From positions 1 through 30,093 of the IMG/VR virus record IMGVR_UViG_2802429218_000005: 30,093 nucleotides of DNA. One strand, written 5' to 3'. The notes under the pieces were generated by a model. That model was given only the letters and a program-made list of their open reading frames with translations. It searched no databases and was not told the DNA's origin. Positions within the stretch are counted from its first letter, which is position 1. Each line of letters begins with the position of its first letter. This document shows, piece after piece, positions 1,284 through 22,853 of the stretch. The stretch is from a virus (Duplodnaviria > Heunggongvirae > Uroviricota > Caudoviricetes). Made by a program: the position numbers and the translations under genes.

Positions 1284-2669
1284 TCAACGCATGCTTTTTG
1301 CGGCCTTATCTTGCTCCCAATGTGTGACACCTTCGACCCCACGCGTCGAGTCAGATGTAAGCATCAATGGCTGTCTAAGGAAGAGCCCCATCAAATCCGG
1401 GACACGGGCAAAGTCTTGAACAGTCTCAGCCCACTCATAGTTGTCCTCTAATGGGTAATAATTAACGGCATGCAGGAAAGCACCCAACACAGTTGTTTTA
1501 GAGGCATCGTAGGCCGAGATATGCTCCATGTTTTTATCCCTACGTAGTTCTTCAATATCTATGCCTTCGCAAGTCTCATACCAAATATGCACCACGCCAG
1601 CACGATCAGGGGGAATCTGCATGACTCCATCATTGAGCAAGCTCTTGAAATGCTTGGATCTGAGGCCAAGAGAAATCTCATGATCGCAGCGCCACTGAGC
1701 TCCAACGCACTTTGCAACATCCTCTACAAAAATGTTGAGAATATCGTTATTGGTGCCAGGACGAATAACTCTCTGAGCGATAGTCGAGATACTTCGTTTC
1801 TCATTGCTATCTAGCTCCCCAAATACCAGCAATTCATGCTGTGGGCTATTGGCTCTGACTGAAAATTTTCTGTAGTGACGTCTGAGACCTAATTTGTCGA
1901 TGGCTCGTATTCCCACACTGATTGAACCTTCATTAGCTTTTCCCGTCCCCCCTTTAATGGCTAGATTCACCGCTTTAATAACGTCTGCCGGAGTCACACT
2001 GGCGACCTGCTCATGGAAAATTATATCGACAATGTTCCATGGTGCGACTTTGAGCATATGTTGGCTCAATTGATGCCAGATGTTGGCCCAGGCTTGCTCT
2101 TCTGTCTTTGAGTACTTGGTTTGCTTATCCGACCTTTTGCACTCGACGTAGAACTCCAGATCACCTAACTTGACAAGCATATCCGGTGATTTTTTGGTCT
2201 TTCCATCGGGCCAAACAATGCTGCTTTCTGGGATGAAGGCAACCTCATAGCCGTTCTTTAGGTAGAACGATGCCGTCAGCAGCTCAAAAATTTGAGTTTC
2301 TGGTTTATTGTTATTTGCTAGCATTTTGTCCAGAACATCATCGACGTATGGGACTTTGCGAAGCTGGTCTGCAACAGCTCCGATGGCCATAGCATAGGGG
2401 TAGATACGTCTGCTGCTGTAAGTAGCATCACTATATGGAAAATCATGAGACAGATACGACGCCAGAATGTACCAGTCGATGTCATCTTCTGCTGGTATGA
2501 AGAGCTGGGGCTCTATCGGCAGATTGATGTTAAACTTAGCCTCCTTCTCTCTTATGCGCTTGAAATATGCAGCTTTGCGAGCAGCCCAGGCCTCAGTTCC
2601 AAGCCTATCCACAAGCAACTGATAAAAAGCTTTTGTTCTTAAACGCTCAACACTACTGACACTATCCAT
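1284..2669 (-). CDS. Hypothetical 461-aa protein with PD-(D/E)xK-type nuclease motif (PDMLVKLGDLEFYVECK)
   Basis: Long ORF, convergent with upstream pair; motif P162-D163...E172...E176-x-K178 encoded at 2136..2186 (verified by reverse-complement translation). Confidence 0.65.
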   Translation of the reverse strand: MDSVSSVERLRTKAFYQLLVDRLGTEAWAARKAAYFKRIREKEAKFNINLPIEPQLFIPAEDDIDWYILASYLSHDFPYSDATYSSRRIYPYAMAIGAVADQLRKVPYVDDVLDKMLANNNKPETQIFELLTASFYLKNGYEVAFIPESSIVWPDGKTKKSPDMLVKLGDLEFYVECKRSDKQTKYSKTEEQAWANIWHQLSQHMLKVAPWNIVDIIFHEQVASVTPADVIKAVNLAIKGGTGKANEGSISVGIRAIDKLGLRRHYRKFSVRANSPQHELLVFGELDSNEKRSISTIAQRVIRPGTNNDILNIFVEDVAKCVGAQWRCDHEISLGLRSKHFKSLLNDGVMQIPPDRAGVVHIWYETCEGIDIEELRRDKNMEHISAYDASKTTVLGAFLHAVNYYPLEDNYEWAETVQDFARVPDLMGLFLRQPLMLTSDSTRGVEGVTHWEQDKAAKSMR

Positions 2670-2929
2670 TGCGGTCTCTCTTGGTTGTTGTATAGAGTCT
2701 TTAGCGATATATGTGATTTCAACTTATTGGAGGTATTATCCTTCAGAAATCAAAGTTTGCTACCACAAAGAAATAGAAACTCTTTATTGCATCCTGTGTA
2801 AGTATCTATCCAAGCGGACCATTAGTTTTTTTAGATATCTGACGTCCCGCAACGTCCGCTTCTGGCACAGAGCGGACTGTCAGCTTAGGTTAAGCCCTAT
2901 GATCCTACCCACGTAATATGGACACAGGC

Positions 2930-3796
2930 CTAAGCGAGGTTCTTGTTTTCAAATTGTTCCGGACTGAGGCCGCCACACCAACTGTGCCGCCGCCACCGAT
3001 TGTAATCACATTCGATATAATTAAACACCGTTGCCCGCATTATTTCCCGGCTGATAAAGTGTTCTCCATGGATACATTCCACTTTCAGCGAATGAAAGAA
3101 GCTTTCCACGCAGGCATTATCGTAGCAGCAACCTTTTGCGCTCATACTTCCACGCAGATTATGCCGCTTCAGTTGCGCCTGATAATCTGCTGAACAGTAC
3201 TGGCCTCTACGGTCCGTGTGAACGATAACGTTCCGGGGCCTCTTACGCCGCCACAGCGCCATCTGCAGGGCATCGCAGGCCAGTTGCGCCGTCATGCGTG
3301 GCGACATTGACCAGCCAATAACGGCACGTGACCACAGGTCAATGACCACTGCCAGATACAGCCAGCCTTCATCTGTACGTAAGTACGTGATGTCTCCTGC
3401 CCACTTCTGGTTCGGGCCACTGGCGTAAAAATCCTGCTCCAACAGATTTTCTGACACAGGCAGGCCGTGTGCGCGGTAGCTGACCGGGCTGAACTTCCGG
3501 GAGGCCTTTGCCCTCAGTCCCTGACGGCGCAGGCTTGCCGCCACGGTTTTTACGTTAAAGGGGTAACCCTGAGCACGCAGTTCATCCGTCAGGCGTGGGG
3601 CACCGTAACGCTGTTTTGACCGGGTAAAAGCCGCGAGGACAACGCTGTCGCAGTGTTGGCGGAACTGCTGACGCGTGCTTATCCTTGTCCGCCGCTGACA
3701 CCACGTATACCAGCCGCTGCGGGCCACCCGGAGCACGCGGCACATTGCTTTGATGCTGAACTCAGCCTGATGTTTTTCAATAAAGACATACTTCAT
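2930..3796 (-). CDS. insF: IS3 transposase OrfB (DDE catalytic component; normally expressed as OrfAB by -1 frameshift)
   Basis: Translation [32 protein letters not shown]... with integrase-core motifs ([18 protein letters not shown]); frame is -1 relative to orfA. Confidence 0.9.
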
Positions 3797-4101
3797 TTCA
3801 GGCGCTTCGCGAAGTATGTCGCGGCCTTTTGGAGGATAGCCAGCTCTTCATCCCGTTCTGCCAGCTGGCGTTTGAGACGTGCAATCTCGGTAGACATCTC
3901 CAGTTCACGTTCAGAAGACGTCTGCTGATTTTGCTGTTTACTGCGCCAGTTGTAGAGCTGTGATTCATACAGGCTGAGTTCACGGGCTGCGGCAGTAACA
4001 CCGATGCGTTCAGCAAGCTTCAGGGCTTCACTGCGAAATTCAGGCGAATGCTGTTTACGGGGTTTTTTACTGGTTGATACTGTTTTTGTCATGTGAGTCA
4101 C
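3793..4101 (-). CDS. insE: IS3 transposase OrfA (HTH component)
   Basis: Translation [35 protein letters not shown]... matches IS3 OrfA as I recall it; ATGA overlap with orfB. Confidence 0.9.
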
Positions 4102-4213
4102 CTCTGACTGAGAGTTTACTCACTTAGCCGCGTGTCCACTATTGCTGGGTAAGATCACTATGCAGTAAAAGTGTAAGATCAAGTTTGAGCTAATACAAGT
4201 TAGCCTCTTTTCA

Positions 4214-4426
4214 CTAGTGAGCCATTTTATAGTCCCTTAATGCATTTTTAAGTAACTCAGTTTGCTCATAAGCATCATCATAATTATAAATTCCGGTAGC
4301 AGAATAATACTCTTCGATGCATAGAATATTTATCAATGGTTCACAAATCTCTTTAATAAACTCCTTGTTGTTATCGGCAAAAATAATTTTTATTCCTTCC
4401 AAAACAAAGCTATTATAATCAGCCAT
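4214..4426 (-). CDS. Hypothetical small acidic protein (70 aa) downstream of trbL
   Basis: Strong Shine-Dalgarno AAGGAGGTGGATA upstream of ATG; AT-rich; no family recognised. Confidence 0.5.
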   Translation of the reverse strand: MADYNSFVLEGIKIIFADNNKEFIKEICEPLINILCIEEYYSATGIYNYDDAYEQTELLKNALRDYKMAH

Positions 4427-4495
4427 TATCCACCTCCTTACAGGTGTTTAGTGGAAGCGTCAGTTAACGTTACCGCGCTAACTGACGCGTCTAAA

Positions 4496-5899
4496 TCAAG
4501 ATTTTTTACTGCCAGTAAAACTATCACCCTCAAACTCATCCTGTTCGTGGTTACTCTGACGATCGGCTGTGTGTTTACGTATTTGATTCGCTATTTCCCC
4601 ACCAACAGTCTGTTGTGTTCGGATAGAATTAGCACTTCCCTTCATCATCTGATACTCCGATGCTCCATTAGACAGCCCGCTCGCCATGTGAGAAGCCATG
4701 CGGCCAGCTCGTGAGAATGATGAAGCAAACCCCTGGCTTCCTCCGCTGACGCTACCTGTATTGCTCCCTGCAGAAGAACCACCGGAACCGCCTGATGGTT
4801 GTCCTCCAGAAGTATCTACGGAACCGGTATCTTCCCCGCCGCCAAATCCTCCACCTAAACCACCTTTATCACCAGAACCAGATTCTTCGGCCATCGCCGC
4901 TTGTGCAGATTCAAATGCTGCTTTTAGAGCGGAAGCACCACCACTGACTTGAGCTGTAGCGCTCATTGCCATTGCCCCAGCGCCACTGATTGCAGTAGTA
5001 GCAGCGCCAGTAATCATACCTGCTCCAAAACCACCGATCCCTTGTAAGGACGCTCCTCCAACAACGCCTGATAACAACAACGGTAATTTATTCGTCAATA
5101 CTAAAAGAATAATTGACGCCAGAAGTAAAACAATAAGACTATTAAGATCAGGAATATCATTTTTAATAATAGAAAAATACTGATCTAAAAATGATTGCCC
5201 AATCCCAATGATTAATGTCATTGTAAATAATTGAATACCAATCGATAATACTGTGCGTAAGTAATTTATTGCTATATCAGAAGTCCATTTCGAGCCACCA
5301 AACCCAAGAAAAATAACTCCTGCATAACACAACACCCATGCAGAAACTAACATTATTAGCATATTTATCGCGATAAGCGCCATTACTACTAATACTATTA
5401 TCGCGACGGTTATCATTATGGTCGAAATCATTGGAGACCAAATTGATGCCGCTGAACTGACCTTTGTTAATATCACAAAAGCTATATCAACTATGCTGGA
5501 GGGTGAAATACCAGTACTTGTTCCTAAAGCATTTGCTGCAAGTTGTCTCATTGAGTTAATTATAGATTGTGCTATGGCTGGGCCGTTGATTAAAAGATAA
5601 TAAAAAAAACCTATCACGGCAAAAAAACGAACTATTTCTGCAAGTGCATTGATTAAACCTTCCCCTTGCATCGCCAACATACCAAATGTCCAAACCATAC
5701 TGATTAATACCAGCCCCCAGAAGAGCCAATTCGCATAATCACCAATTACTAATGACCATGTGCTGGCTACTTGCTGAAACTTATCTAATAACGTATCAAG
5801 TAAACCGCTACTATCTAATTGACCAGCATAAGCATTTACAGAAAACAAAAAAATCATTCCCCAAAAAGTGAGTTTGCTTACTATTCTCATAATTACCAT
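4496..5899 (-). CDS. trbL: Conjugal transfer protein TrbL/VirB6-like (polytopic membrane protein with Gly/Ser-rich C-terminal tail)
   Basis: Multiple hydrophobic TM segments followed by a GGxGG/SGGS-rich low-complexity tail, typical of TrbL; sits in trbJ-K-L order. Confidence 0.75.
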   Translation of the reverse strand: MVIMRIVSKLTFWGMIFLFSVNAYAGQLDSSGLLDTLLDKFQQVASTWSLVIGDYANWLFWGLVLISMVWTFGMLAMQGEGLINALAEIVRFFAVIGFFYYLLINGPAIAQSIINSMRQLAANALGTSTGISPSSIVDIAFVILTKVSSAASIWSPMISTIMITVAIIVLVVMALIAINMLIMLVSAWVLCYAGVIFLGFGGSKWTSDIAINYLRTVLSIGIQLFTMTLIIGIGQSFLDQYFSIIKNDIPDLNSLIVLLLASIILLVLTNKLPLLLSGVVGGASLQGIGGFGAGMITGAATTAISGAGAMAMSATAQVSGGASALKAAFESAQAAMAEESGSGDKGGLGGGFGGGEDTGSVDTSGGQPSGGSGGSSAGSNTGSVSGGSQGFASSFSRAGRMASHMASGLSNGASEYQMMKGSANSIRTQQTVGGEIANQIRKHTADRQSNHEQDEFEGDSFTGSKKS

Positions 5900-6077: not shown

Positions 6078-6872
6078 TCACCAAATTCGCTTCGGGCTTG
6101 GTGTGTTCTCGCCAGCTAACGCTTTTTCATCAGCAACTATTTGTTGGGCCTCTTTATCGGTCTGAGCCAGCGCCAGTGTTGCTGCAGCGTTTTGTTGAGC
6201 TATCAGAAGCGAGCGGATTTGCAGCAGCTGGTTTGTTTGAGCACTGGCAAGCTGGTTAGCGGCCTGAATAGCTTCCATTTGCCCTTGCGCGCCGGTTGCC
6301 TGAGTTTGCAAATCTGTCAGGTTATCAGCATCGCTTTGCAGTGTTTCCTGCTGTTGATCGAGAGCCTTAAACACGGCGTCGTTCGCCTTTTTACGTGCCT
6401 CAGAGTTGTTCTGTTCAGCTTTACGCAGTGCGCTGATTTCATCCGCAGTACATTCAACATTACTGTTAAAGCACGGCGATGAGCGGTAGTAATTCACGTC
6501 CTGATAACGTTTCAGATATGAATCCAGACTACCGGCCTGATTTTTGTAGTAATTAAGGGTGTCCTGCGCCTGCAACAATTTGTTGATGGTCGAATTGGCC
6601 TGATCCCAGATATAGGCTGCAGGCGCGACTGTATTTTTGAGCATGTTTTCATACTGCTGCAGCTGCGTCTGGTACTGCTGGATCTGTTTAGCCACAGCCT
6701 GAACGTTATTGACTGCGCTGATTGTGGTCTGCACCACATTAGTACCATCGATGACAGGGATACCGGCTGTCGCCGGTAATGCCATGATGGATGCCAGGAA
6801 GGAAGCTGCTAAAGATTTTTTAGCTGCTAAAATCCCTCTCAGTGATGAAAATACTAGGAGCATTAACTTCAT
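6078..6872 (-). CDS. trbJ: Conjugal transfer protein TrbJ (VirB5-like)
   Basis: Signal-peptide-like N-terminus then AGIPVIDGTNVVQTTISAV and Q-rich coiled-coil region typical of TrbJ; adjacent to trbL. Confidence 0.75.
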   Translation of the reverse strand: MKLMLLVFSSLRGILAAKKSLAASFLASIMALPATAGIPVIDGTNVVQTTISAVNNVQAVAKQIQQYQTQLQQYENMLKNTVAPAAYIWDQANSTINKLLQAQDTLNYYKNQAGSLDSYLKRYQDVNYYRSSPCFNSNVECTADEISALRKAEQNNSEARKKANDAVFKALDQQQETLQSDADNLTDLQTQATGAQGQMEAIQAANQLASAQTNQLLQIRSLLIAQQNAAATLALAQTDKEAQQIVADEKALAGENTPSPKRIW

Positions 6873-6953: not shown

Positions 6954-7319
6954 TTATTTATCCAAGATTCTATCCATAATATTTCTTAGTTCTTGTCTGG
7001 TTGATTCTATTTTAGCAAGCAACGTTTTTATTAATGAGGGTGAAAAATCAACTGTGCGTGGATCGTTAGCTAACCACAGTTTAAGTAACCCACCAAGTCG
7101 ACCAAGATCAGCATTTACTCGGCTAAGCTCTACAACCTGATCAATATCTACAATAGACTCAACCTGATAACCCATTGCTACTTTACGAATGAAACTCGCT
7201 ACACTTAAGCCAGATGCTTCTGCATTTTCCTGGATTTGCGCTTTTTCATCTGGCAAACAATAAACTTTAATTGGTGTACTATTTTTTCTAGTCTGAGAAA
7301 CGGTCATATCATTCTCCAT
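6954..7319 (-). CDS. MobC-family relaxosome accessory (mobilisation) protein, ribbon-helix-helix type
   Basis: Motifs AEASGLSVASFIRKVAMG and RLGGLLKLWL resemble MobC family; size about 120 aa; upstream of trb genes. Confidence 0.55.
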   Translation of the reverse strand: MENDMTVSQTRKNSTPIKVYCLPDEKAQIQENAEASGLSVASFIRKVAMGYQVESIVDIDQVVELSRVNADLGRLGGLLKLWLANDPRTVDFSPSLIKTLLAKIESTRQELRNIMDRILDK

Positions 7320-7387
7320 ACAGGCGGTAGCCGATCAGCCTCGCAGAGCAGGACTCCATTGAGCAGCCCAGCTGCGAATAAGGGAAG

Positions 7388-7425
7388 GTAAAGTAGAAGC
7401 GCCGTTTACGGTGGGCCTACTTTAC
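7388..7425. repeat. 9-bp inverted repeat gtaaagtag / ctactttac with 20-nt spacer, about 70 bp upstream of MobC-like gene
   Basis: Read directly from sequence; arms are perfect reverse complements. Confidence 0.5.
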
Positions 7426-7590
7426 ATGTCCTGCCCCACTGTTGCCGTTGTATATCTGTGTACCCATTGTGTATTTCGGTGTAAGCAGTGTGTTTTTTTG
7501 ATGTATTTCTGCAGGTTTATTCATATATTAAGTGTGTAATATATGTGTTTTCTGAAAGGAAACTGATTTAAATACCAAAATTTAAGATAA

Positions 7591-8813: not shown

Positions 8814-9080
8814 GTGAGAATTGTGAGGACAAAAAAGGCTGAACCAAGCACTGTAGGTGAAATACTTAATGAAGAATTCTTGAAACCCATGAATATGTCT
8901 TTATGTAAATTAGCGGAATTGACAGGAATGTCTTATAGTAGAATAAGAAAAATTATAATACATAATGATCCAATATCCATAAAAGAAGCATTATTACTTG
9001 CTGAAGTATTTCACACGGATCCGGATTTTTGGATAAACTTACAAAATGTTCATCATTACTGGCATCAAAAATGTAACTGA
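8814..9080 (+). CDS. XRE-family HTH protein, HigA-like antitoxin/antidote (solitary); alternative GTG start at 8823
   Basis: STVGEILNEEFLKPMNMSLCKLAELTGMSYSRIRKII...EALLLAEVFHTDPDFWINLQNVHHYW matches HigA/VapI-type antidote pattern; SD aaggtgag upstream of GTG 8823. Confidence 0.7.
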   Translation: MRIVRTKKAEPSTVGEILNEEFLKPMNMSLCKLAELTGMSYSRIRKIIIHNDPISIKEALLLAEVFHTDPDFWINLQNVHHYWHQKCN

Positions 9081-9134
9081 TATCAAAATCTGCCGTTAAT
9101 AATGTGTATTATCAACGGCATGTATTTAACAAGA

Positions 9135-10880
9135 TTAATTATACTCAATGCGGAATAATTTATTCTCTTGAGACAATTTCACAATGAAGTTTTTCTCATC
9201 GCTCAGTTCTTTTGGAAGTTTATCCTTCAATATAGATGCAACATACTGAATTTGAGATTTGTAACGTTCAACAAGATTAGCTATTCTGACCAGTTGATTG
9301 CCATGCATAAGTTCTTTTTTGTCATTTAACAAAAAATGGAAACAAGGAATGTTTTCTTCATCTGCAAATAAAATATATGCAATATCAAAACAAACAATTT
9401 CTCCTTGTTTTTTTCCTGAACTAAAATTGGTATTAAACGAACTGAATTTGTATATTTTTTTTCCTGTTTTTGATGCTGTAACAATATCATATTTCAAAGC
9501 ATATTGTTCACCGTATAACTCTTGAGACACAGTTGAAAAATATTTATTGAACTTATTTACTTGAGATTGAACTTCTAACTCAAAATCATCAGAAAATAAA
9601 TTATTGTTAATAGCATCAACTTGAGCGTTTAACTCTTCGATATTCTTTTCAGTTTTCTCAATTTGGTTAATAATGGCTTCGAACTCACCTTTTTTTCGGT
9701 GTTTTTCATTCAATTCTAAGACTAGTCCTTCAAGTTCATCAAACGAACCGCTTTTATTTATATTTTCAACTAATTCTTTTTCTTTGGCAAGAAGTATAGT
9801 TAAATCTTCTTGAGTTTTACTAATCTCACTAGTTATTACAGGTAATTCTTTTGATATGAATTTAACTTTTTCTTCAACCATTTGGTTGTGGAAGGAAAGT
9901 AATGATTCAAATTTTACCTGAATATTCTTTATATTATTACTGGCTTCAGTATATAGATCTTTCAATTGATTAGTGTCAATTTCCATCTTGCCACTTTCAA
10001 TATCTTTTACCGCCTCAACTATGAGTTCTTTCCGTAATTTAAGCTTACTTAATTTTGAACCTATAGTGCTCAATTGATACTTAATATCATCCAAAGCATT
10101 GAGATCATTTTCAAAGTTAGGGTTGATATAGAAAGTAGACTTTTTCAGATCTAAATCATTAATTTCCGAAATCAATAATGCTAGTGATGTCTCATATGCA
10201 GTGCGAGTTTGTTTAGACTCCAACCTATTCTTGAAGGTTGTTTCCATTCGGATGCTAGCTAACAAATTTTGTTTAAGAGCTCCTTTTCCAAAATCACATC
10301 CAAGAAGAAATAAATGAAGGGTCTCATATTCATCATCACGAGTAAATGAGCTTAGTGTTCTCAGCGTATGGGTGACACTGAGTTCTTTATATCTTATATT
10401 ATTAGATATTATTTGGGAAAAGGTAGGCTTATTACCATAATGGCCAGAAACTAATACGTCTGTTAACGTTTCTTCAAACTCTTCGATTGTTTTTTGTAGT
10501 CCATTAATTCTTCTGATACATTTTTTACGAGAGAGAAAATTTCGCTCAATGACGATGGTCTTAGCTAGCGGATCATCTAAATCCTCAACAAGTGTTAGGG
10601 TTATTAAAACCTCTGTTTCAATCAAGAAGTTTTTAACAAGTGTATATTCGCCCTTTTTAGTTTCTGGGTCAGTATAAATGCCTTTAGCATCTGCGCCTAA
10701 ACAAAAATCGACTAACATTAATACTGTTGTTTTACCAACATTATTGCCAGTGGTTTTGGTTGACTCGGTTGATGCTTCATCAACTGGCGTTTCATCAACG
10801 ATCAAATTCAAACCAGCATGAAACTTTATTAAGCGTATAACCCCATCTTTATTGGCTATCTGGAGAGATTTTATGAACAT
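9135..10880 (-). CDS. SMC/Rad50-like ABC ATPase with central coiled coil (LmuB-like / ABC-3C ATPase candidate)
   Basis: N-terminal FHAGLNLIVDE then Walker A GNNVGKTT (res 45-52); long E/K/L-rich central region; C-terminal Walker B-like ILFADEE; AT-rich; last gene of coupled 3-gene operon. Confidence 0.7.
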   Translation of the reverse strand: MFIKSLQIANKDGVIRLIKFHAGLNLIVDETPVDEASTESTKTTGNNVGKTTVLMLVDFCLGADAKGIYTDPETKKGEYTLVKNFLIETEVLITLTLVEDLDDPLAKTIVIERNFLSRKKCIRRINGLQKTIEEFEETLTDVLVSGHYGNKPTFSQIISNNIRYKELSVTHTLRTLSSFTRDDEYETLHLFLLGCDFGKGALKQNLLASIRMETTFKNRLESKQTRTAYETSLALLISEINDLDLKKSTFYINPNFENDLNALDDIKYQLSTIGSKLSKLKLRKELIVEAVKDIESGKMEIDTNQLKDLYTEASNNIKNIQVKFESLLSFHNQMVEEKVKFISKELPVITSEISKTQEDLTILLAKEKELVENINKSGSFDELEGLVLELNEKHRKKGEFEAIINQIEKTEKNIEELNAQVDAINNNLFSDDFELEVQSQVNKFNKYFSTVSQELYGEQYALKYDIVTASKTGKKIYKFSSFNTNFSSGKKQGEIVCFDIAYILFADEENIPCFHFLLNDKKELMHGNQLVRIANLVERYKSQIQYVASILKDKLPKELSDEKNFIVKLSQENKLFRIEYN

Positions 10881-11100
10881 ATTCCAATTTCCCCTTTGGA
10901 TTTAATTCAACTATTCCTGCTAGGTATAACCAGTCAAGAGATAAAACAAAAATTGATATAGACATTTCAATTTTTTTCTTTGTTTCGTAAAAAAGATCTA
11001 TCAATTCAATTTCATCGAAACGTTTCAGCGTATCTATAATAAACCCACCGTTATAATATAAGCTATCTTTAGGATGAATGTCCTTTGGTAACAACATCAT
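10849..11100 (-). CDS. Small overlapping ORF (83 aa), candidate middle component of three-gene system
   Basis: Overlaps upstream gene end and downstream gene start by 32 nt each (translational coupling); no motif recognised. Confidence 0.4.
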   Translation of the reverse strand: MMLLPKDIHPKDSLYYNGGFIIDTLKRFDEIELIDLFYETKKKIEMSISIFVLSLDWLYLAGIVELNPKGKLEYVHKISPDSQ

Positions 11101-12049
11101 TCACTCCGTTAGGGTCCCTAAAAATTTTACAGCGTATGAACGCGTCCACTGCAAGTATACTAACACAAAGCTCCAGTTCCTCTAATGGTATTTGTGTAAA
11201 ATTTGCACTTTTTCTGACCATTTCAACAGAGCTGTCAATTATTTTAAAAAATAGCTCATCTCCAGTGTATTGTGTACTCAATTTTACGAAGATAGTTCTA
11301 AAGGAAGACAAAACTGAAAGGCTTGAGTTTTTACCCATCTGGTTGAACTCTGAATAAATGCGGGATACTTTTCCATGATGGATTTTGTAATCTTCAATAA
11401 TATATTCAGCTGCATTCAAATTATTAAATGTAATCTTGTCAGTTACATCGAATGGTTGCGGGAAGTCAGTAGTTTCAACATTAGAAAAATCCTCCTTAGC
11501 TAATATATTTATAACAGCAGCAATATTTGTTTCGATTAAAACATTATCAGATTCCTCTTGTAACTCATTTTTTAGAAAACCGTGTATTTCTTTCTGTTTT
11601 GTTATGTCAAGATGTGAAATAACATTAAGTATCGATTTTACATCATGAATATCTTGCTGCGGTATAAAAACCAAAGCATGAGGATTAGTGTAAGTTTTAT
11701 TTCTTAAATCACTAGCATCTTTTGCAATTGATATAAATTTAAACTGATGGCCTTTATATAATCTTAAGTCTTTGTTCAAGGCTGAATCAATTTTTGTTTT
11801 AGTTGCAGTTGATGAAACCTGTAATACTATCTTCCCATTCTCATCGATAAGATCGATACCCTCAAAATTATGCTTCTCTTGATTAGTATTCTTTAGGGAA
11901 TACCCAAATAATAAATTAAAGAAGTGAACATAAAAATCTTCACAATGAAGATTATAGTTAAGAATATTTAACTTCCCTCTTAATTCAACGCTATAGCATA
12001 GCAACGTAAGCCTTTTCTCACATAAATCAAAATAAATAGATCTGTTCAC
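11069..12049 (-). CDS. Hypothetical 326-aa protein, candidate effector (LmuA-position) of three-gene defence-like operon
   Basis: First gene of the operon; AT-rich; no confidently recognisable catalytic motif by eye. Confidence 0.6.
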   Translation of the reverse strand: MNRSIYFDLCEKRLTLLCYSVELRGKLNILNYNLHCEDFYVHFFNLLFGYSLKNTNQEKHNFEGIDLIDENGKIVLQVSSTATKTKIDSALNKDLRLYKGHQFKFISIAKDASDLRNKTYTNPHALVFIPQQDIHDVKSILNVISHLDITKQKEIHGFLKNELQEESDNVLIETNIAAVINILAKEDFSNVETTDFPQPFDVTDKITFNNLNAAEYIIEDYKIHHGKVSRIYSEFNQMGKNSSLSVLSSFRTIFVKLSTQYTGDELFFKIIDSSVEMVRKSANFTQIPLEELELCVSILAVDAFIRCKIFRDPNGVNDVVTKGHSS

Positions 12050-12302: not shown

Positions 12303-12348
12303 TGGTGCCGATAATAGGAGTCGAACCTACGACCTTCGCATTACGAAT
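12303..12348 (-). tRNA. tRNA-Thr(CGU) 3' fragment, 46 nt from anticodon loop to CCA (thrW-like att-core remnant, not a complete gene)
   Basis: Reverse complement reads ATTCGTAATGCGAAGGTCGTAGGTTCGACTCCTATTATCGGCACCA; sequence 5' of the anticodon loop does not continue as tRNA. Confidence 0.7.
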
Positions 12349-12571
12349 CATAAGAATCCGCTTCTAATTCAAAGTATTACCCCATCAACACTGCGCTCAC
12401 ACGTCCCACCACATCAAAACATGTAAAGCCTTGCAAGCCATTGTGAGGCCTTATGTGTCTCAGTTTTGTCCCACTACGACCTGCACAGAAAATAAGAAAA
12501 TAGCGGTGATATCAAACAGTACAGAAGTCTTTTTTCTTTCAAATGGAGAAACTGATTAACCCGTTTAATTG

Positions 12572-12796
12572 TACTCCTCATGGGCAATCAGCAGTCCTCA
12601 GAGTAATGGAATGGCAGAAAGGTTCGTGAAAACGATGAAGGAAGACTACATCGCGTTCATGCCGAAACCGAATGTAAGAACGGCATTGCATAATCTTGCA
12701 GTGGCGATCGAACATTACAATGAAAACCATCCGCACAGTGCGTTGGGTTATCGCTCTCCGCGAGAATATCGACGTCAGCGGGTAACGTTAACTTAA
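12572..12796 (+). pseudogene. DDE transposase/integrase-core C-terminal fragment (IS3/IS481-like), 5'-truncated
   Basis: [18 protein letters not shown] ... [14 protein letters not shown] are C-terminal rve-domain motifs; in-frame stop immediately upstream, no N-terminal part present. Confidence 0.55.
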
Positions 12797-12837
12797 GATA
12801 CACCCCCTGTCTGGAAATAAGGGGGCAAGAACAATGA

Positions 12838-13590
12838 TCAGATTCCCTGGTGAGTAAGAATTTTACTTTCTGAACTCCTCTGAGAGTATTGACTTGGAGA
12901 AACACCAAAATAACGTCTAAATACATAAGTAAAGTATGAGACACTGACATAACCACAGACCTTAGCTACTTTACTAATAGGATAACAACGAGTGCTGAGT
13001 AAATATTCAGCCATTTGCATCCTCTCATCAAGTATGATCTTACTGAATGATACCCCCTCTTCTTTCAATTTCCTCTTTAGTAAACTTTCGCTGAGATATA
13101 ATCTTGATGATATATCCTTAAGACGCCATGGTGCAGATAAATCCGTATGAATAATCGTTTTAACTTTAGCCCCTGTGCTTTTCAAACATCCAAACAGAAA
13201 TACTCCAAATTGTTTTTCAGAAGAAAATGCAGAGAGACATGTAAAAGCAATAGACTCATCAAAAGTTTCTATGTATTCAGCACAGTGATTAGCCCAACTA
13301 ATTAATCCTTTAATTAAACTGAAGTCAGCAAAGTTTATTTTTAAATAAGATGGATATTCCCTACAATCAGAAATATCCCTTAAGTTATTAGCTTTCAAAT
13401 AGCGACTAATAAACTCAGCGCCAAAATCCGCCACTATCACTCTTTCAGGATATGTCAGGAAAAAATCTCTATAGCTAGAGTCGACAAGTACAGATAAACC
13501 TCTATCCAGAAACACACTCTCTTTTCCGAAATAAACATCAAAGGACTCCAAAATCAATATAACTGAACATGTAGTTGCCATATCATCCAC
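12838..13590 (-). CDS. AraC-family transcriptional regulator (AppY/EnvY-like subfamily)
   Basis: C-terminal HTH region WRLKDISSRLYLSESLLKRKLKEEGVSFSKIILDERMQMAEYLL...CGYVSVSYFTYVFRRYFGVSPSQY resembles AppY/EnvY as recalled; AT-rich. Confidence 0.8.
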   Translation of the reverse strand: MDDMATTCSVILILESFDVYFGKESVFLDRGLSVLVDSSYRDFFLTYPERVIVADFGAEFISRYLKANNLRDISDCREYPSYLKINFADFSLIKGLISWANHCAEYIETFDESIAFTCLSAFSSEKQFGVFLFGCLKSTGAKVKTIIHTDLSAPWRLKDISSRLYLSESLLKRKLKEEGVSFSKIILDERMQMAEYLLSTRCYPISKVAKVCGYVSVSYFTYVFRRYFGVSPSQYSQRSSESKILTHQGI

Positions 13591-14164
13591 CCAATTTAAC
13601 TGAAACCAGGATGAAGTATATGCATATAAAGTTCACTTTGCCAAACTTCAGTATAAAAAACCACATAAAAAATAGGGTGTGATAAAAAATACCGTAAAAA
13701 TAAAGCAAAGGATTATAAATTCCGTTACAGTTACAAATGATACTTAAGAAACAATTCCTTAGAAAACCTTATTTACAGCCAATAAGTAAGACACTTATAT
13801 GATATCAAGTTTTCATAAAACATAACTAGGCTAAATAGCTGCGCCTAATACCGCTACACTTTTGCCATCCCATGTTTGCCTCCGGGTATTGACCCCTTCT
13901 CTACGCAACTTCAGTTCCCACCACCAACTTTGCGGCAGCTTTGTAGGATCAATGTCTAAAAGAATAATGGTGACCGATAAGAAAACGACTGAATAACTGC
14001 AGATTTTCGCTCGAAACCTTCCTGTCAGATCCATAGCGAATCAAGTGCTGAATGTCACAGTATCGAACAGAAAACAGTGACGATCTAACCCTTCAAGAAT
14101 ATTCTACGATTGTTCTGTTTAGGAAAAGCAAGGCGGGAAGTCGGGAGATAAGTCATTGATAAAG

Positions 14165-14230
14165 TGGCGGAGAGAGGGGGATTTGACCCCCCGGTAGAGT
14201 TGCCCCTACTCCGGTTTTCGAGACCGGTCC
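14165..14230 (-). tRNA. tRNA-Ser(CGA) 3' fragment, about 66 nt, with T-arm substitution (GTTC to GGTC); serU-like att-core remnant
   Basis: Reverse complement reads GGACCGGTCTCGAAAACCGGAGTAGGGGCAACTCTACCGGGGGGTCAAATCCCCCTCTCTCCGCCA; 5' part of tRNA absent. Confidence 0.7.
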
Positions 14231-14309
14231 AATCATCAAACGAAACATAAAATTAATTCACATTATGAGGAAAAGTATCTTTTTTGTACTTGTAAATTCA
14301 AAGGCTTAG

Positions 14310-15179
<870 letters not shown>

Positions 15180-17765: not shown

Positions 17766-18350
17766 TTACTCCGGATATTTAAAAATTACGTAGGTATGCG
17801 AAGGGGAGAGTTTGTTAAGCACACATTCGACGACGGTGTCGCCCCAGATACGCAGCGCGGTATCACAGGGATCGCCACATGTCATCCAGGTGGTGTTGGT
17901 GGCGGCTGGCATGTTGACCTGCCAGTAATACCGCCATTCCGGCGCATTCACCGCGTCAGTACAGGCAGATGAGCAGGTGAACGTGCTTTTGTCGTATCGC
18001 GTGATGGTAGCGTCTGGTCTGCCCAGGGCAGCAAGCTGTGCAAGGTAAAAATCCTCATTGATGCCGCCCGCCAGGTTAACCTTCGCATCCAGTCGTTGCT
18101 GACGCTGGCGAAGGGTCTGTGTCCCTGCGGGAATACATTCATCCGGCAGACCGCACAGACGCTCCCAGCGGTTTATCAGTTCAGTGGTGGTGCGCGGATC
18201 CAGCTCCCGCATCAGGGCATCCGCACGCTGATGAACGCGGGTTAATGACGGTGCCGCACCGGCAATCGCCGGATCTCTGGCTGACCACGCCGGACCGGGT
18301 GGCAACAGTGCCGACAACAGACGGATGTAATCATCGTTTGTCACGTCCAT
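17766..18350 (-). CDS. Baseplate/tail protein, Mu gp48-like (YmfQ/DUF2313-like)
   Basis: Position between baseplate J-like and tail fibre; N-terminus [22 protein letters not shown] as in e14 YmfQ-type proteins as recalled. Confidence 0.75.
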
Positions 18351-19399
18351 GAAATCGTCCCCAGTACCGCCAGTTCATTTTTTGCAATGGAGATATTGTC
18401 CGCCGGTGCAAGCAACTGATGGCTGTATTCCCCGTTCGCACCGGAAATCGCTTCACTGATACGTGACACCTTCAGTTCTCCCTGCGGATAACCATCACGC
18501 AGCAGGAACGAACGCAACTCCGCGGTAATGGCAGCCCGTATTTCTGGTGTGTCCGGCGTCACGCGGATATGAAAATCCACCGTATGTGCCACCGGCCTGA
18601 ATACATACAAATCAGAGCCTGCCACCGGGGCCAGTGGCCCGATATGTTGTCTTGCTGCCGTTTCCGTTGATTCTTCCGGAATGGGATTAATCAGGTCACT
18701 GCTGGCAATCATCACACCGACAGTTCCCGTTCCCATCCAGTGGCGGTATGTCCATGCACGGGTAATGCCTGGCACTTCTTTAGCCCAGACGACATAGTCC
18801 CCGTCAGCCCCGCCCTGAGGCGTCCAGTAATACCGCTCAATGACGCGGGCGCGCCACGTTTCCAGCTCTTCAGTATCAAATCCGCCTGTCAGGGTGTCAG
18901 CCACACCGGAAGACGGCAGACCATTCACCGGCGTGACCAGGATTAATGCCGTACCGTCGTCAGCGTTACCGACCGCGCCTGTAGTTGAGCAAGTGATCGG
19001 CACACGCAGGACACCACCGGAGCTGGTTGCATCGGCAGTTGCCGTGTACTGAACCAGGTCATCGCGCTGAATCACGCTCCCGGCAGTCACCTTCAGGCCA
19101 TCGCTGACACCTTCCCAGCGCATATACCCGCTGGCAGCCGTGGCCCCCTTGCGCGGACACCGTTTCATCGCAGCATGTCGCGCCAGCCAGGACTCATCGC
19201 ACAGGTCAGGCAGCATATTCATTGCCAGATAATCGATGTACCCGTAAACCGTATGCAGCGCCGCCGCATACACCTTTGCCCGCACGTCTTCATCCATGCG
19301 CCGGAGCGTGTCGCTGACGTCCAGCCTGGCGAATAAATCGTTACGGAGCATACTGATATTTTCTGCCAGCGTCGGGCGCTGAAATTCACTGTCCGCCAT
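18341..19399 (-). CDS. Baseplate J-like protein (Mu gp47-like)
   Basis: Size and position in conserved Mu-like baseplate gene order; overlapping start/stop with neighbours. Confidence 0.8.
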
Positions 19400-19814
19400 G
19401 CGTTATCGCACTCCACAGATCATCAAAAGAAATCATTACCGGTCCGTCACGACGCCAGAGAGTGATACTGTTACCCAGTTCATTAATCCCGGTGCGGCGG
19501 ATATCCAGATCAATACGGGACACCACGCCGTCATCAATCATCCATTGCAGGCATTCGCGGATATATCCCCTTACCGTCTGCACCAGTTGATTGGTCAGTT
19601 TGCTGCGCTGAAGCAGCCACAGTCGGGAGCCGTAACGGTCATTCTGTACCGCAGGCCAGGTATCCCCCCACCATCCCATCGGGACGTCGGCGTTGTCATC
19701 AGGCTCCGCCCGCCGCCAGGTAAACAGGGAAATCACCACGGCGCGGGTCAGCGGATCCAGCGGTGCGCTGGCGCAGGTGCGTTTACCGTTCACCGTCAGC
19801 CACAGTTCCATCAT
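19386..19814 (-). CDS. Baseplate protein, Mu gp46-like
   Basis: Size and position between gp45-like and J-like genes; overlapping coupling. Confidence 0.75.
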   Translation of the reverse strand: MMELWLTVNGKRTCASAPLDPLTRAVVISLFTWRRAEPDDNADVPMGWWGDTWPAVQNDRYGSRLWLLQRSKLTNQLVQTVRGYIRECLQWMIDDGVVSRIDLDIRRTGINELGNSITLWRRDGPVMISFDDLWSAITHGGQ

Positions 19815-20359
19815 GCCTCCATCGCTTTATCCGGTTTGTCGGTGTTACTGCCCTGACCGTTCTCTCTGTGACGATGCCCGTTATAGGCAAGCCGCATCGC
19901 TGACATGGTGGTACCGCCGGAGTCGCACAGGTCTTTCACCTGTCCGGTCACTTCCAGGTCCATTTCAAAACGTGCTCTGGGCGCATTGCGAAACGTGATC
20001 GTTTTACCTGCACCGTCCACCACGATCCCCTCCCGGGTCAGCGTCACGGACTGCCCCTGATCGTCATAGACAGCCACCTCACCCGTCTGCAGCCCTTTCA
20101 GGCGGTAGCGCCGGTCCGACACCGTAACAACCACCGCATGAGAACGGTCACCATCCGGAAACAACACCACCGCTTCCGCACCGCTGTTTGCCCTTGCGGT
20201 AAAACCGTAGGGTTCAAGATGTTCAACCCCGGCTTTGGGTTCACCGGCAATCAGGGACACATCCACGGTCTGACATTTCGTGGCGGCACTGATGCTTTTC
20301 ACCACCGCCCGCCCAATCAGGCCGAGGAGTTGTCGCTGTATGGTTTCAATCGCCTTCAT
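19811..20359 (-). CDS. Baseplate assembly/spike protein, Mu gp45 (gpV-like)
   Basis: Size, position and overall pattern of gpV-like proteins. Confidence 0.75.
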   Translation of the reverse strand: MKAIETIQRQLLGLIGRAVVKSISAATKCQTVDVSLIAGEPKAGVEHLEPYGFTARANSGAEAVVLFPDGDRSHAVVVTVSDRRYRLKGLQTGEVAVYDDQGQSVTLTREGIVVDGAGKTITFRNAPRARFEMDLEVTGQVKDLCDSGGTTMSAMRLAYNGHRHRENGQGSNTDKPDKAMEA

Positions 20360-21438
20360 CAGAACGGGTCCTCCTGTACTCTGGCTTTTTTCTTTTTCCG
20401 CGCGCCGGGGGCTTCGGGTTCAGGCAGATAAGCATCAGGTGGGCCGACACGGATTTCCGTCAGGGTGCCATTCTGGTCCTGAGTAAACGTGACTTCCGAG
20501 ACAAGCAGTTCGGTATTGTCGAAACCACAGACCGGATCGAAGACAATCACCCGCTGGTTGGGCTGCCACAGCGTACCGTTACCCTGTCGCCAGCCCTGCA
20601 CCACATAGGTGGTTTCATCCGTCCGCGCCGCCCGTTGTCGGGCTTCAAAGTCAGCACGCGCAATACAGCCTGCCCCCGTAGCCTGCCCTGTCTGCCTGAT
20701 ATACATCGGACGGTAACGGGCAATAAATGCATCCTCTGTGCGGGCCCGCAGCGCGGTGGTGGTGGCCTCACCGAAATCATCGTCGTTTCCGGCACGCTGC
20801 CCCGCCACCTGGTAAACTGAAAACCGCTCCCGGATACTCTTCTCCGTATCACAGGAAAGGATGTTTTCCCCAAGTACCAGCGCGGTATGTGCCCGCGTTG
20901 AGCCAATACCACCAATCACCAGCCTGCCGTGCGGGTCGTCATAAGCCAGCGCCTGCTGCTGACCGAGTATTTTGTTGATCACCTCGATCACCGTTTCACC
21001 GTGATCAGGCTGGACATCCGGAATAACACCCGACGGCGCACCGTTGTTCACCACCTCAATGCCGAAGGGCGCAGCAAGCGCCTGCGCAATCTGTACCAGC
21101 GATCGTCCGTTAAACTGTGTCGGTTCGGCTGCACAGTCAATCAGATCAGCGGTTAGACTGCGTCCGGCAATACCGGTGCTGACCGAACGGGCATCGTAAC
21201 GAACGGGCGTCGCCTCCACCCAGCCGGTGATCACCAGCTCATCACCAATCAGCACTTCCACTTTTGAACCGTTTTTAATGCGCGGCTGAAGCGTGGTGAT
21301 ACCCTCATCTCCCGGCCACTGGCGGGTGATCTCCACACTGAAATCCCGCGCCAGTCGTTCAACACCGGCACCGATGCGCACCGATGTCCAGCCATTCCAC
21401 TCCCGGCCATTTACCCGTAGCGTGACGTTATCGTTCAT
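20359..21438 (-). CDS. Tail/baseplate hub protein, Mu gpP / late control D-like
   Basis: Size and position downstream of DNA-circulation gene in Mu-like order. Confidence 0.75.
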   Translation of the reverse strand: MNDNVTLRVNGREWNGWTSVRIGAGVERLARDFSVEITRQWPGDEGITTLQPRIKNGSKVEVLIGDELVITGWVEATPVRYDARSVSTGIAGRSLTADLIDCAAEPTQFNGRSLVQIAQALAAPFGIEVVNNGAPSGVIPDVQPDHGETVIEVINKILGQQQALAYDDPHGRLVIGGIGSTRAHTALVLGENILSCDTEKSIRERFSVYQVAGQRAGNDDDFGEATTTALRARTEDAFIARYRPMYIRQTGQATGAGCIARADFEARQRAARTDETTYVVQGWRQGNGTLWQPNQRVIVFDPVCGFDNTELLVSEVTFTQDQNGTLTEIRVGPPDAYLPEPEAPGARKKKKARVQEDPF

Positions 21439-22763
21439 TGCACTGGCACCTTCAGAGGGATCACCGGCACAAAGCCGGGATGCGTAATGGCATTACGCCG
21501 GATAATGTCCGCGTCACGCGCCGCGTTATCAAACCAGGTCGCCGCCAGCACCAGCGCGGGTAAAACCTCATCCGGCGTGCGCTGAATGATCCGTGCAGAC
21601 TGTTCAAGGCGCGTGTTGATATCCGCATTCAGATCTGCTTTCACCCGGCGCAGCGCCAGAAACAGCGCATCACTGGTTGTACGGGACAACTCCTTATCAA
21701 TTGCCGTATTCAGTGTGTCGCGAATGTCAGTCAGTTCTTCCCACGTCGGCAGGTCAACTGTGTTTTTCACCGCCGGTGCATTGTTCAGTGCCGGATGCGT
21801 GACGGAAGGCCAGCCAGTGCTCTGCGCGGGTGTTGTTGCCTGCCCCACTGCGGAATTCTGCATCACCGCGGAAGTTGTTGGCGCAGGCAATCGGGTGACG
21901 GCATACGCCGCTTCGCTGATTGCGGTCGTACGAAGGGTGCTGGCAACCACGTTACGCTGCTGCGTCGCCGTGGCGGTGGTTTTACTGTCCGTTTTCCAGA
22001 CGCCGCGCGGTTGCAGATCGCTGCCGAGGCTGACACCGGAAAGCCTTTTGATCATGGTGACCAGGTCGCTGGCGTTACCATAAAGGCGTTTCCCGGTACG
22101 CCACATTTTCTGCACCTGCTCAACGAAATTTTTGCCTGACGATGGCGGCGGCAGAAGTACCGAGATATCCCCCTGCAACAGCCTGGCGGCATCCGATACG
22201 GCAGAATCCACCACTTTCATCGCATCAGAAACATACCCCAGCATTATGCTGGCATTACCGATAACGTCGTTCTGCACGAAATCCGCCACACCATCGATAC
22301 TGAAACCGCTGAAGCTGTCACTGATGCAGTCATCCAGTGCAGAACAGGATGACATCAGCGTCTGCGCCGTCGCCGCACCTGATGTGGGGTAAGAGAGTTC
22401 TCCTGCTTCGACAAACTTCAGGTCAAAGCGGACAATACGCCCTTCACTTTTCGATGTGCTGACCCGAACTTCCCCGTCAACACAGACTTTCAGCTCACCA
22501 TATGTCGGGTGGACAAGCGTGCCGGGACCGGGTTTATTCAGCGCGTCAATCAGGCGATCGCGCTGGTCAAAGCAGTCATCTCCCACCACATAAGCTGTGA
22601 TGGACGGGCGGAAAGTGACTTTTCCCAGATCTTCGGTATAGGGCTTGTCGCGGTTCGGATATTCGTGTGTTTCCACACGGCGACCGGTTCCCGCACTTTC
22701 TTCTTCAACCTTAAACGGTACGCCGCGAAATGACGCATCCTGAAGCCTGTCTTTCCACGTCAT
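21435..22763 (-). CDS. DNA circulation protein (Mu gpN-like)
   Basis: N-terminus MTWKDRLQDASFRGVPFKVEEES...HEYPNRDKPYTEDLG typical of Mu N family; SD GGAG upstream. Confidence 0.8.
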   Translation of the reverse strand: MTWKDRLQDASFRGVPFKVEEESAGTGRRVETHEYPNRDKPYTEDLGKVTFRPSITAYVVGDDCFDQRDRLIDALNKPGPGTLVHPTYGELKVCVDGEVRVSTSKSEGRIVRFDLKFVEAGELSYPTSGAATAQTLMSSCSALDDCISDSFSGFSIDGVADFVQNDVIGNASIMLGYVSDAMKVVDSAVSDAARLLQGDISVLLPPPSSGKNFVEQVQKMWRTGKRLYGNASDLVTMIKRLSGVSLGSDLQPRGVWKTDSKTTATATQQRNVVASTLRTTAISEAAYAVTRLPAPTTSAVMQNSAVGQATTPAQSTGWPSVTHPALNNAPAVKNTVDLPTWEELTDIRDTLNTAIDKELSRTTSDALFLALRRVKADLNADINTRLEQSARIIQRTPDEVLPALVLAATWFDNAARDADIIRRNAITHPGFVPVIPLKVPVQ

Positions 22764-22777
22764 ATAAACTCCGGATA

Positions 22778-22834: not shown

Positions 22835-22853
22835 AACCTAATATTTTTAATTA

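Follow-up and report, generated by a model that had tools for sequence, protein, structure and literature searches.

The window, the whole stretch of 30,093 nt analysed from the viral record IMGVR_UViG_2802429218_000005, carries three overlapping reading frames on the minus strand at 11069-12049 (326 aa, GTG start), 10849-11100 (83 aa) and 9135-10880 (581 aa), exactly where the first-pass annotation had placed them. The longest stop-free run in the operon region reached 588 codons; in 1000 shuffles that preserved composition, the longest run averaged 84 codons and never exceeded 192. The three genes are real, with lengths far beyond chance. An AAGGA Shine-Dalgarno sequence was located 8 nt upstream of the 326-aa frame, an LmuA-type effector gene that is also annotated in RefSeq. 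Overlaps of 32 nt had been reported at both junctions, which holds for the longest reading frames, but the effector/middle overlap is probably 29 nt. The small-protein homologues all begin with MLLP, and the second ATG (11097) is preceded at a distance of 6 nt by a GGAG, so the LmuC-type middle gene probably occupies 10849-11097 (82 aa); both versions are annotated in RefSeq. The N-terminal start of the ATPase, MF[IL]KSL, was conserved in the alignment. A consensus scan alone placed a terminator-like 13-bp hairpin with a weak T-tract (9091-9120, minus strand) immediately past the stop codon of the ATPase gene, in the gap that separates it from the convergent HigA-like gene.

The three proteins were searched against profile HMMs, as the first-pass annotation had proposed. 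The 326-aa protein consisted of Pfam SMEK_N (2.6e-38) and the ABC-3C C-terminal domain CTD10 (1.5e-32), and is identical to RefSeq WP_001082070.1, named 'ABC-three component system protein'. The SMEK_N domain (aa 1-164; 11558-12049, minus strand) has a predicted PD-(D/E)xK / Mrr-like nuclease fold with family-invariant H35, E37, D66, D69, Q77, V78, S79 and K86, and in a profile search matched the nuclease domain (Mrr/SMEK) whose structure is solved from the short-pAgo system of Kordia jejudonensis (E = 4.7e-18). Its motif reads E...D...QxS with a downstream Lys instead of the canonical (D/E)xK, and because of this departure we only infer that the domain is catalytically competent. CTD10 (aa 175-310; 11120-11527, minus strand) is an all-helical ABC-3C C-terminal domain and is presumed to be the docking and oligomerisation module. 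The earlier statement that this protein had no recognisable catalytic domain, and might represent a new effector, is superseded by these matches; SMEK is moreover already listed among the short-Lamassu effectors (10.1101/2025.04.02.646746). The only Foldseek match of the effector with a probability above 0.9 was YydB of Bacillus subtilis (E = 0.012), a 481-aa protein with a different effector domain.

The small reading frame matched Pfam PF20293, ABC-3C middle component 6 (MC6; 1.2e-23). Homologues of 75-77 aa shared 26 invariant columns, and MC6 was encoded between the effector and the ATPase in all seven diverged loci compared; the first-pass annotation had named loss of this frame from homologous loci as grounds for abandoning the operon reading. 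Comparison of the MC6 profile with the PDB gave no meaningful match and no detectable relative among the solved LmuC chains, to which MC6 was therefore not relatable. Its role could differ, because its size is far below that of typical protein domains.

The 581-aa protein, an LmuB-type ATPase (9135-10880, minus strand) identical to RefSeq WP_000470135.1, matched Pfam DUF2326 (7.5e-23), an SMC/Rad50-like ABC ATPase family, and the PADLOC HMMs PDC-M68B (2e-33) and LmuB (2.1e-11). For the AlphaFold2 model (pLDDT 83), the best Foldseek match was B. subtilis YydD (E = 1e-21, 17% identity), and the closest solved relatives were the Salmonella LmuB chains 9hqx_B and 9hqu_A (approximately 1e-11). No LmuB sequence was recovered from the PDB by phmmer or by the family profile, which returned only coiled-coil noise, so the link between this ATPase and LmuB rests on the PADLOC HMM and the fold comparison. 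Wadjet (JetABCD) was considered and rejected: kleisin, KITE and Toprim partners (JetA, JetB, JetD) were absent, the ATPase has 581 aa against approximately 1100 aa for the Wadjet SMC protein, and the JetC fold matches were weaker (1e-6 to 4e-7).

The ATPase motifs proposed earlier fared unequally. The P-loop had been read as GNNVGKTT and was recovered as TGNNVGKTT (aa 44-52; 10725-10751, minus strand), invariant in the ATPase alignment and with K50 present in 118/120 sequences of the family alignment. The suggested coiled-coil middle corresponds to a near-unbroken helical region in the model (DSSP helices, aa 198-456; 9513-10289, minus strand), with an apex near aa 317-323. The CxxC zinc hook was absent from the middle region in all 119 family representatives; cysteines of the ATPase occur only at 60, 121, 195, 497 and 513. 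The ABC signature motif FSSGKKQGE (aa 486-494; 9399-9425, minus strand) was invariant in the ATPase alignment, with G489 and K491 near-invariant across the family. By contrast, the string ILFADEE, taken earlier for a Walker B-like motif, proved to be residues 503-509 within the helix that follows FSSGKKQGE, of which 507-509 vary across the family. The true motif comprises a strand (516-519 in the model) and the residues after it, F516-L-L-N-D520-K521-K-E523 (9312-9335, minus strand), and has Lys where the catalytic Glu would normally stand. D520 and E523 were each present in 118/120 family members, whereas position 521 was K in 59, Q in 24, R in 20 and S in 9, and never mainly E; the motif residues were still invariant in relatives of 29-44% identity. 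An alternative register, with N519 in the Asp position and D520 in the Glu position, was rejected because residue 519 is variable (N, H, Y, Q or T), in contrast to the invariant D520. LmuB proteins naturally carry a deviant Walker B (10.1101/2025.04.02.646746, 10.1101/2025.03.14.643221, 10.1101/2025.06.23.660979). The Lys after the Asp is a variant of the same deviation and lies outside the published D[Q/S/T/E] logo, for which reason ATP handling may differ.

The same gene order, SMEK_N+CTD10 / MC6 / DUF2326, was found in 7/7 diverged loci ranging from Proteobacteria to a Priestia plasmid. Order and overlaps were kept in Pseudomonas, Caballeronia, Photorhabdus, Delftia, Aeromonas, a metagenomic contig and the Priestia plasmid, with unrelated flanks in each. 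Among complete E. coli genomes the operon occurred in 49/5426, under 1%, and here it occupies the end of an integrative element recognised by an att-type 46-nt 3' fragment of tRNA-Thr (12303-12348). That fragment, an IS3-family fragment and trbL/trbJ/traJ conjugative-transfer remnants were all found in the window, in agreement with the tRNA piece, IS3 copy and conjugative debris described before. In strain NT1F10 the operon adjoins a type II restriction-modification system and a GIY-YIG nuclease gene. This distribution bears on the reading of the 581-aa protein as a housekeeping SMC/RecN/RecF-type factor of chromosome maintenance or repair with no role in defence, a match that the first-pass annotation had held would count against its own interpretation. 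The fold is indeed common to SMC, Rad50 and RecN heads, but the gene is confined to that small fraction of E. coli genomes rather than to the core genome, always lies in a mobile, variable context and is always coupled to SMEK_N+CTD10 and MC6; the Walker B is D-K, lacking the catalytic Glu of the canonical D-E, and in fold the protein comes closest to LmuB and YydD rather than to housekeeping SMCs. Distribution and operon coupling effectively refute the housekeeping reading, which we regard as scarcely credible.

The GC content of the operon region was 31%, as against approximately 51% for the host, bearing out its earlier description as AT-rich. No convincing sigma-70 promoter was found upstream; the promoter scan gave nothing above shuffle background and placed no candidate in the 150 nt 5' of the effector gene, and the AT-rich operon may be silenced. 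Together with the near-identity (at least 99%) of 43 of the 49 E. coli copies, which is compatible with recent spread, these observations would suit an operon that is intact yet transcriptionally silent or non-functional in its host, a horizontally acquired AT-rich cargo retained only through recent clonal spread. We consider this unlikely, as none of the three frames is disrupted, the ribosome-binding sites are good, the catalytic motifs are conserved and the family is under strong purifying conservation across phyla.

Beside the cassette at the element end lies an orphan HigA-like gene, which was rejected as a component of the system because it is convergent with the ATPase gene and absent from all seven diverged loci. 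Its presence next to a cassette at the very end of the element could suggest an addiction or stabilisation module for that element, toxin-antitoxin-like, in which LmuB and LmuC would keep a nuclease toxin in check and invading DNA would not be sensed; the published Lamassu mechanism is itself the sequestering of a toxic nuclease. Simple addiction would, however, have no need of an ABC ATPase that is conserved, senses DNA and carries a coiled coil, and the HigA-like gene is missing from the diverged loci, so this explanation was judged very improbable.

No homologue was found in 50,697 phage records. This null result, and the adjoining conjugative-transfer remnants and att-type tRNA-Thr fragment, would agree with machinery that acts mainly against plasmids or other replicons, shielding the host or the carrier integrative element from competing mobile DNA, as does V. 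cholerae DdmABC, a module discovered through its elimination of plasmids and activated by palindromic DNA (PMC11707656; 10.1101/2025.03.14.643221). Against it, the Lamassu systems assayed so far protect against both phages and plasmids, and the sequence holds nothing to separate the two targets. A mainly anti-plasmid role is possible, and is given a minor share of our confidence.

We conclude that the locus likely encodes a full Lamassu system of the short form (type II, the equivalent of ABC-3C), which an E. coli integrative element carries as cargo at its end and which, by analogy, would work through a sequestered nuclease. ABC-3C is treated as equal to type II Lamassu, and the second Lamassu sub-family is defined by CTD6-12, MC2-8 and an LmuB of approximately 600 aa (10.1101/2025.04.02.646746, 10.1101/2025.03.14.643221, 10.1101/2025.06.23.660979). 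All three components conform: an N-terminal effector domain fused to one ABC-3C CTD (LmuA), a small middle component coded between LmuA and LmuB (LmuC), and a Rad50/SMC-like ABC ATPase with Walker A, signature motif and coiled-coil insertion (LmuB). Every component scored above the gathering score of its family (Pfam CTD10, MC6, SMEK_N, DUF2326), with no family-level difference from the ABC-3C classification. That classification is reportedly the computational work of Krishnan, Burroughs, Iyer and Aravind (2020), and the ABC-3C definitions used here are second-hand, from the Lamassu papers and Pfam names. The first-pass annotation had proposed a Lamassu/ABC-3C operon in the order effector, middle protein, SMC-like ATPase. 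The family matches, the gene order recurring in 7/7 loci, the RefSeq names and the 2025 survey show that call to have been right, and the PADLOC LmuB match and the fold agree with it. The subtype is already catalogued, and the identical E. coli proteins already have names in RefSeq. The discovery value is accordingly small, since the system type, the domain families and the exact E. coli protein set are on record in Pfam, NCBIfam and RefSeq, and the SMEK subtype in the 2025 survey. In the searchable literature we found no experiment on any SMEK/CTD10/MC6 Lamassu, and the practical value of the locus is as a handy native E. coli representative of the large branch that combines DUF2326 LmuB, MC6, CTD10 and SMEK.

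A mechanism can be drawn by analogy from the solved Vibrio and Salmonella Lamassu complexes. An LmuB dimer with one MC6 would hold a single effector monomer through CTD10 near the coiled-coil apex, keeping the nuclease inactive. LmuB and LmuC would bind the DNA of a phage or plasmid at its ends or at aberrant structures arising from replication or palindromes, and this binding, with ATP turnover, would release the effector. Once free, the effector would form oligomers by way of CTD10, in which the SMEK domains would assemble an active site, and would then degrade DNA indiscriminately, so that the infected or plasmid-bearing cell would die (abortive infection).

The proteins differ from V. cholerae DdmABC and Salmonella enterica LmuACB (PDB 9hqu, 9hqx, 9hr5) as follows: the effector nuclease is of the SMEK/Mrr type where theirs is Cap4, CTD10 stands in place of CTD7 as C-terminal domain and MC6 (75-82 aa) in place of MC3 as middle component, and the Walker B is D-K rather than D-Q. 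Salmonella LmuACB has a zinc hook, which is lacking here, and no HMMER-level sequence similarity connects these proteins with the solved chains. An invariant Asp-Lys Walker B with an invariant Glu three residues on, the missing zinc hook and a middle component of approximately 75 aa make an ATP-binding switch or a relocated catalytic base possible, unlike DdmABC. The DUF2326 / MC6 / CTD10 / SMEK branch might thus be a mechanistically distinct Lamassu, with different ATP use and/or a different oligomeric geometry activating a non-canonical (QxS...K) SMEK nuclease, although we hold this as a tentative and rather doubtful proposal. If this is true, a major and uncharacterised Lamassu clade, numbering over 1600 clusters at 50% identity, would gain in this locus its first model native to E. 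coli. The Asp-Lys Walker B and the very small middle component could also show how far the DdmABC/LmuACB mechanism generalises.

Four further systems were compared. YydD of the B. subtilis YydD-YydB pair (PDB 9a6c, an integrative model) belongs, like the ATPase here, to the DUF2326 family; a literature search found no functional work on YydD or YydB. The match to the PADLOC candidate system PDC-M68 extends over the full length of the ATPase, whereas the effector and middle protein match no PDC-M68 model, and PDC systems are themselves candidates. Rad50-Mre11 / SbcCD, the proposed Lamassu ancestor, likewise has an ABC ATPase head interrupted by an antiparallel coiled coil and senses DNA ends and hairpins. 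Here the coiled coil is much shorter, the zinc hook and Mre11-type phosphoesterase are absent, and the Walker B has lost its Glu. The nuclease is proposed to be set free instead of being positioned, and the genes, unlike core ones, are sporadic and mobile. With the Kordia jejudonensis short-pAgo system SPARMA (SMEK/Mrr-APAZ with pAgo; Mrr domain PDB 26bh) the effector shares homology over its N-terminal 164 residues, including conservation at the E, D, Q-x-[ST] and K positions. Collateral DNase activity is reported for the Kordia system (PMC12205087, citing Kim et al. 2020), and in both cases the nuclease would, by analogy, be a collateral effector held by a sensor. The sensor in SPARMA is a guide-RNA-loaded Argonaute with APAZ, whereas here it would be the SMC-like ATPase with MC6 and CTD10.

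Three minus-strand ORFs appeared in the ORF listing with the coordinates and lengths of the first-pass annotation: an effector of 326 aa with a GTG start (11069-12049), a middle protein of 83 aa in its longest form (10849-11100) and an ATPase of 581 aa (9135-10880). The GC content of the operon segment was 31%, and its longest stop-free run was 588 codons. In 1000 shuffles the longest run averaged 84 codons and never exceeded 192, so the three ORFs are not due to chance. AAGGA lies 8 nt upstream of the effector GTG (12049), and the ATPase ATG (10880) opens the MF[IL]KSL conserved in the homologue alignment. For the middle protein, the second ATG (11097) is judged the most likely start, because MLLP begins the homologues and GGAG is found 6 nt upstream. 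An overlap of 32 nt had been proposed at both junctions. The middle/ATPase overlap is indeed 32 nt, whereas the effector/middle overlap would be 29 nt with the start at 11097. Homologues usually overlap by 10 nt at the middle/ATPase junction; the extra length here comes from a 7-residue C-terminal extension of the enterobacterial middle protein. A 13-bp hairpin was located 3' of the ATPase stop codon.

Profile searches placed all three proteins in curated families, well above threshold, with ABC-three-component (ABC-3C) names for effector and middle protein. The effector was matched by SMEK_N (2.6e-38, a call also given by NCBIfam) and by C-terminal domain 10 of ABC-3C systems (CTD10, 1.5e-32), the middle protein by ABC-3C Middle Component 6 (MC6, 1.2e-23), and the ATPase by DUF2326 (7.5e-23). 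Among PADLOC models, the ATPase matched PDC-M68B (2e-33) and LmuB (2.1e-11), and the effector N-terminus an Argonaute-associated REase (8.6e-23). Many complete E. coli chromosomes carry the operon DNA at 100% identity, and the operon was present in 49 of 5426 E. coli genomes. RefSeq product names already read 'ABC-three component system protein', 'ABC-three component system middle component 6' and 'DUF2326 domain-containing protein'; an annotation of this exact sequence already exists, and the Lamassu/ABC-3C system is of a known kind.

The N-terminal 164 residues of the effector resembled the 'Mrr domain from Kordia jejudonensis Mrr-APAZ pAgo' (PDB 26bh), with E = 4.5e-9 from the single sequence and 4.7e-18 using a 35-sequence profile. 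The Kordia protein is also named SMEK-APAZ, and PMC12205087, citing Kim et al. 2020, describes it as a weak collateral nuclease that acts on both double- and single-stranded DNA; the short-pAgo system is named SPARMA (10.1101/2025.04.08.647717). An alpha-beta-beta-beta-alpha core was present in the effector AlphaFold2 model (pLDDT 81.5), and alignment placed family-invariant residues in its first helix (E37), first strand (64-69, D66), next strand (74-79, Q77-V-S79) and the helix past that strand (K86). On the 26bh and CTD10 matches and this core with its invariant residues, the effector is predicted to be a recognised nuclease domain joined to a recognised Lamassu docking domain. The earlier suggestion of a possibly new effector was set aside on the SMEK_N, CTD10 and 26bh profile matches. 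Catalysis by the effector is only inferred, because the QxS...K motif is non-canonical.

The ATPase was modeled with AlphaFold2 from 34 homologues (pLDDT 83, pTM 0.64), giving an N-terminal beta-sheet with the P-loop, a near-continuous helical region (198-456) in keeping with the coiled-coil middle first proposed, and a C-terminal half-head. Sequence-only searches of the PDB with the ATPase returned nothing. The top Foldseek match in the PDB was an integrative model of B. subtilis YydD (1e-21), followed by Salmonella Lamassu LmuB chains (9hqx and 9hqu, ~1e-11), and then by SMC, Rad50 and condensin heads and the LmuAB structure 9ux7. The cross-linking-based YydD-YydB model (PDB 9a6c) was both the best structural match of the ATPase and the sole probable Foldseek match of the effector.

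Motifs were tabulated for 34 close homologues, and again for 119 full-length representatives (25-58% identity) from an exhaustive profile search, which returned 1607 clusters at E<=1e-3. The Walker A lysine already noted (K50) was present in 118/120 family sequences, and the signature motif was [GS]-x-G-K-K across the family. A Walker B assignment to ILFADEE (503-509) was rejected, as this segment belongs to a helix past the signature motif and varies at positions 507-509; the Walker B strand is instead F516-x-x-x, closing with D520 (kept in 118/120). The catalytic-Glu position that follows was K in 59, Q in 24, R in 20 and S in 9 sequences, with Lys invariant in the sub-clade of this ATPase, and E523, three residues past the Walker B Asp, was invariant (118/120; aa 520-523, window 9312-9323). 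One hallmark of LmuB in the literature is a deviant Walker B, described as Glu replaced by Gln (10.1101/2025.03.14.643221) and as the pattern hhhhD[Q/S/T/E] (10.1101/2025.04.02.646746). Lys therefore falls outside the published logo as a further variant, of which no description was found in the literature. The CxxC hook was absent from all 119 representatives. The structural matches to YydD-YydB suggest that the B. subtilis yydB-yydD genes are a Lamassu relative in the same DUF2326 clade.

Gene order was compared across diverged homologue neighbourhoods from Pseudomonas chlororaphis, Caballeronia udeis, Photorhabdus tasmaniensis, Aeromonas veronii, an uncultured contig, a Delftia contig (assigned from the source named for the protein) and a Priestia megaterium plasmid, with ATPases 43-65% identical to that of the window and unrelated flanks in every locus. 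The order SMEK_N+CTD10, MC6, DUF2326 was co-directional and mostly overlapping, with genes abutting rather than overlapping at one junction in each of two loci (L006 and L010). MC6 was kept in all diverged loci, so the small ORF is conserved, and the refuting case named at first pass, a small ORF not conserved across homologous loci, does not hold. Homologues were found on 11 plasmids and in 0 of 50,697 phage records. Clostridium botulinum plasmid pRSJ19_2 encodes MC6 together with a DUF2326 ATPase 29% identical to that of the window (2058-4659). Ahead of them, in the usual place of SMEK_N+CTD10, is a 220-aa protein lacking any Pfam match; it could be an LmuA effector not yet classified, or the locus could be an effector-less variant. 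The arrangement fits effectors being swapped on a common chassis. On Acinetobacter seifertii plasmid pAS78-1, annotation divides the DUF2326 homologue (3001-4802) into two CDSs (3001-3726 and 3891-4802). It lies beside a YoeB/Phd toxin-antitoxin pair and the S subunit gene of a type I restriction-modification system, and the split suggests a disrupted, decaying copy.

The Lamassu/ABC-3C reading was thus borne out by the three curated families, the LmuB HMM and fold matches, and the gene order kept in diverged loci. A diverged Lamassu sub-family is defined by LmuA CTD6-12, LmuC MC2-8 and LmuB of ~600 aa (10.1101/2025.03.14.643221), which CTD10, MC6 and the 581-aa ATPase fit exactly, and SMEK is listed as an effector particular to short Lamassu (10.1101/2025.04.02.646746); on these grounds the system is placed, with high confidence, in short/type II Lamassu. 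According to three structural studies from 2025, on type II Lamassu of Vibrio and Salmonella, an LmuB dimer and one LmuC hold one LmuA monomer by its C-terminal domain, close to the coiled-coil apex; this assembly binds DNA ends or structures derived from replication or palindromes, LmuA is let go with ATP turnover, and free LmuA tetramerises via its C-terminal domain into an active nuclease site, so that DNA is degraded and infection aborted (10.1101/2025.04.02.646746; 10.1101/2025.03.14.643221; 10.1101/2025.06.23.660979). By analogy, and with moderate confidence, LmuB/LmuC of this operon would sequester the effector, sense DNA and release the effector, which would then oligomerise. The operon could serve as a native E. 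coli example of a very large predicted Lamassu branch, one whose Walker B motif is unusual and whose middle component is minimal.

The tRNA fragment, IS3-family fragment and conjugative debris noted at first pass were all present around the operon. On one side are remnants of trbL, trbJ and traJ (4496-5899, 6078-6872 and 6954-7319), with a traJ-II RNA upstream of traJ (7337-7436, minus strand; Rfam, 90 bits); these belong to a P-type conjugative transfer region, broken by an IS3 element further left. A HigA-family antitoxin/XRE HTH gene (8814-9080, plus strand, TIGR02607 2.3e-19) is convergent with the ATPase gene. It was rejected as a system component, being missing from all diverged Lamassu loci and having no intact HigB-like ORF within ~300 nt upstream, and is probably a toxin-antitoxin remnant rather than an operon regulator. 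On the other side, ~250 nt beyond the effector start, lies a 46-nt tRNA-Thr 3' fragment including the CGT anticodon loop (12303-12348, minus strand), identical to a tRNA-Thr gene present in 5017 E. coli genomes. The same distance to the operon was kept in two E. coli carrier strains (NT1F10 and TW14425), with flanks differing past the fragment, which looks like an att repeat at the end of an integrative element bearing the operon. Given the transfer remnants, fixed fragment and diverging flanks, the operon looks like terminal cargo of such an element, in a variable, defence-rich spot beside a prophage. Past the fragment, the window and TW14425 carry an IS3-family fragment and an AraC-type gene, and NT1F10 a hypothetical gene, a type II restriction-modification pair and then a GIY-YIG nuclease gene also found in the window (14355-15179). 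Most carrier strains have a hypothetical gene and a type II restriction endonuclease/C5-methyltransferase pair between the operon and the LEM-3-like GIY-YIG gene; relative to NT1F10 (18043-23595), this segment, hypothetical gene included, is swapped in the window (12350-15179) for the IS3-family fragment and AraC-type regulator. The region past the operon is a variable defence hotspot beside an e14/Mu-like prophage tail region.
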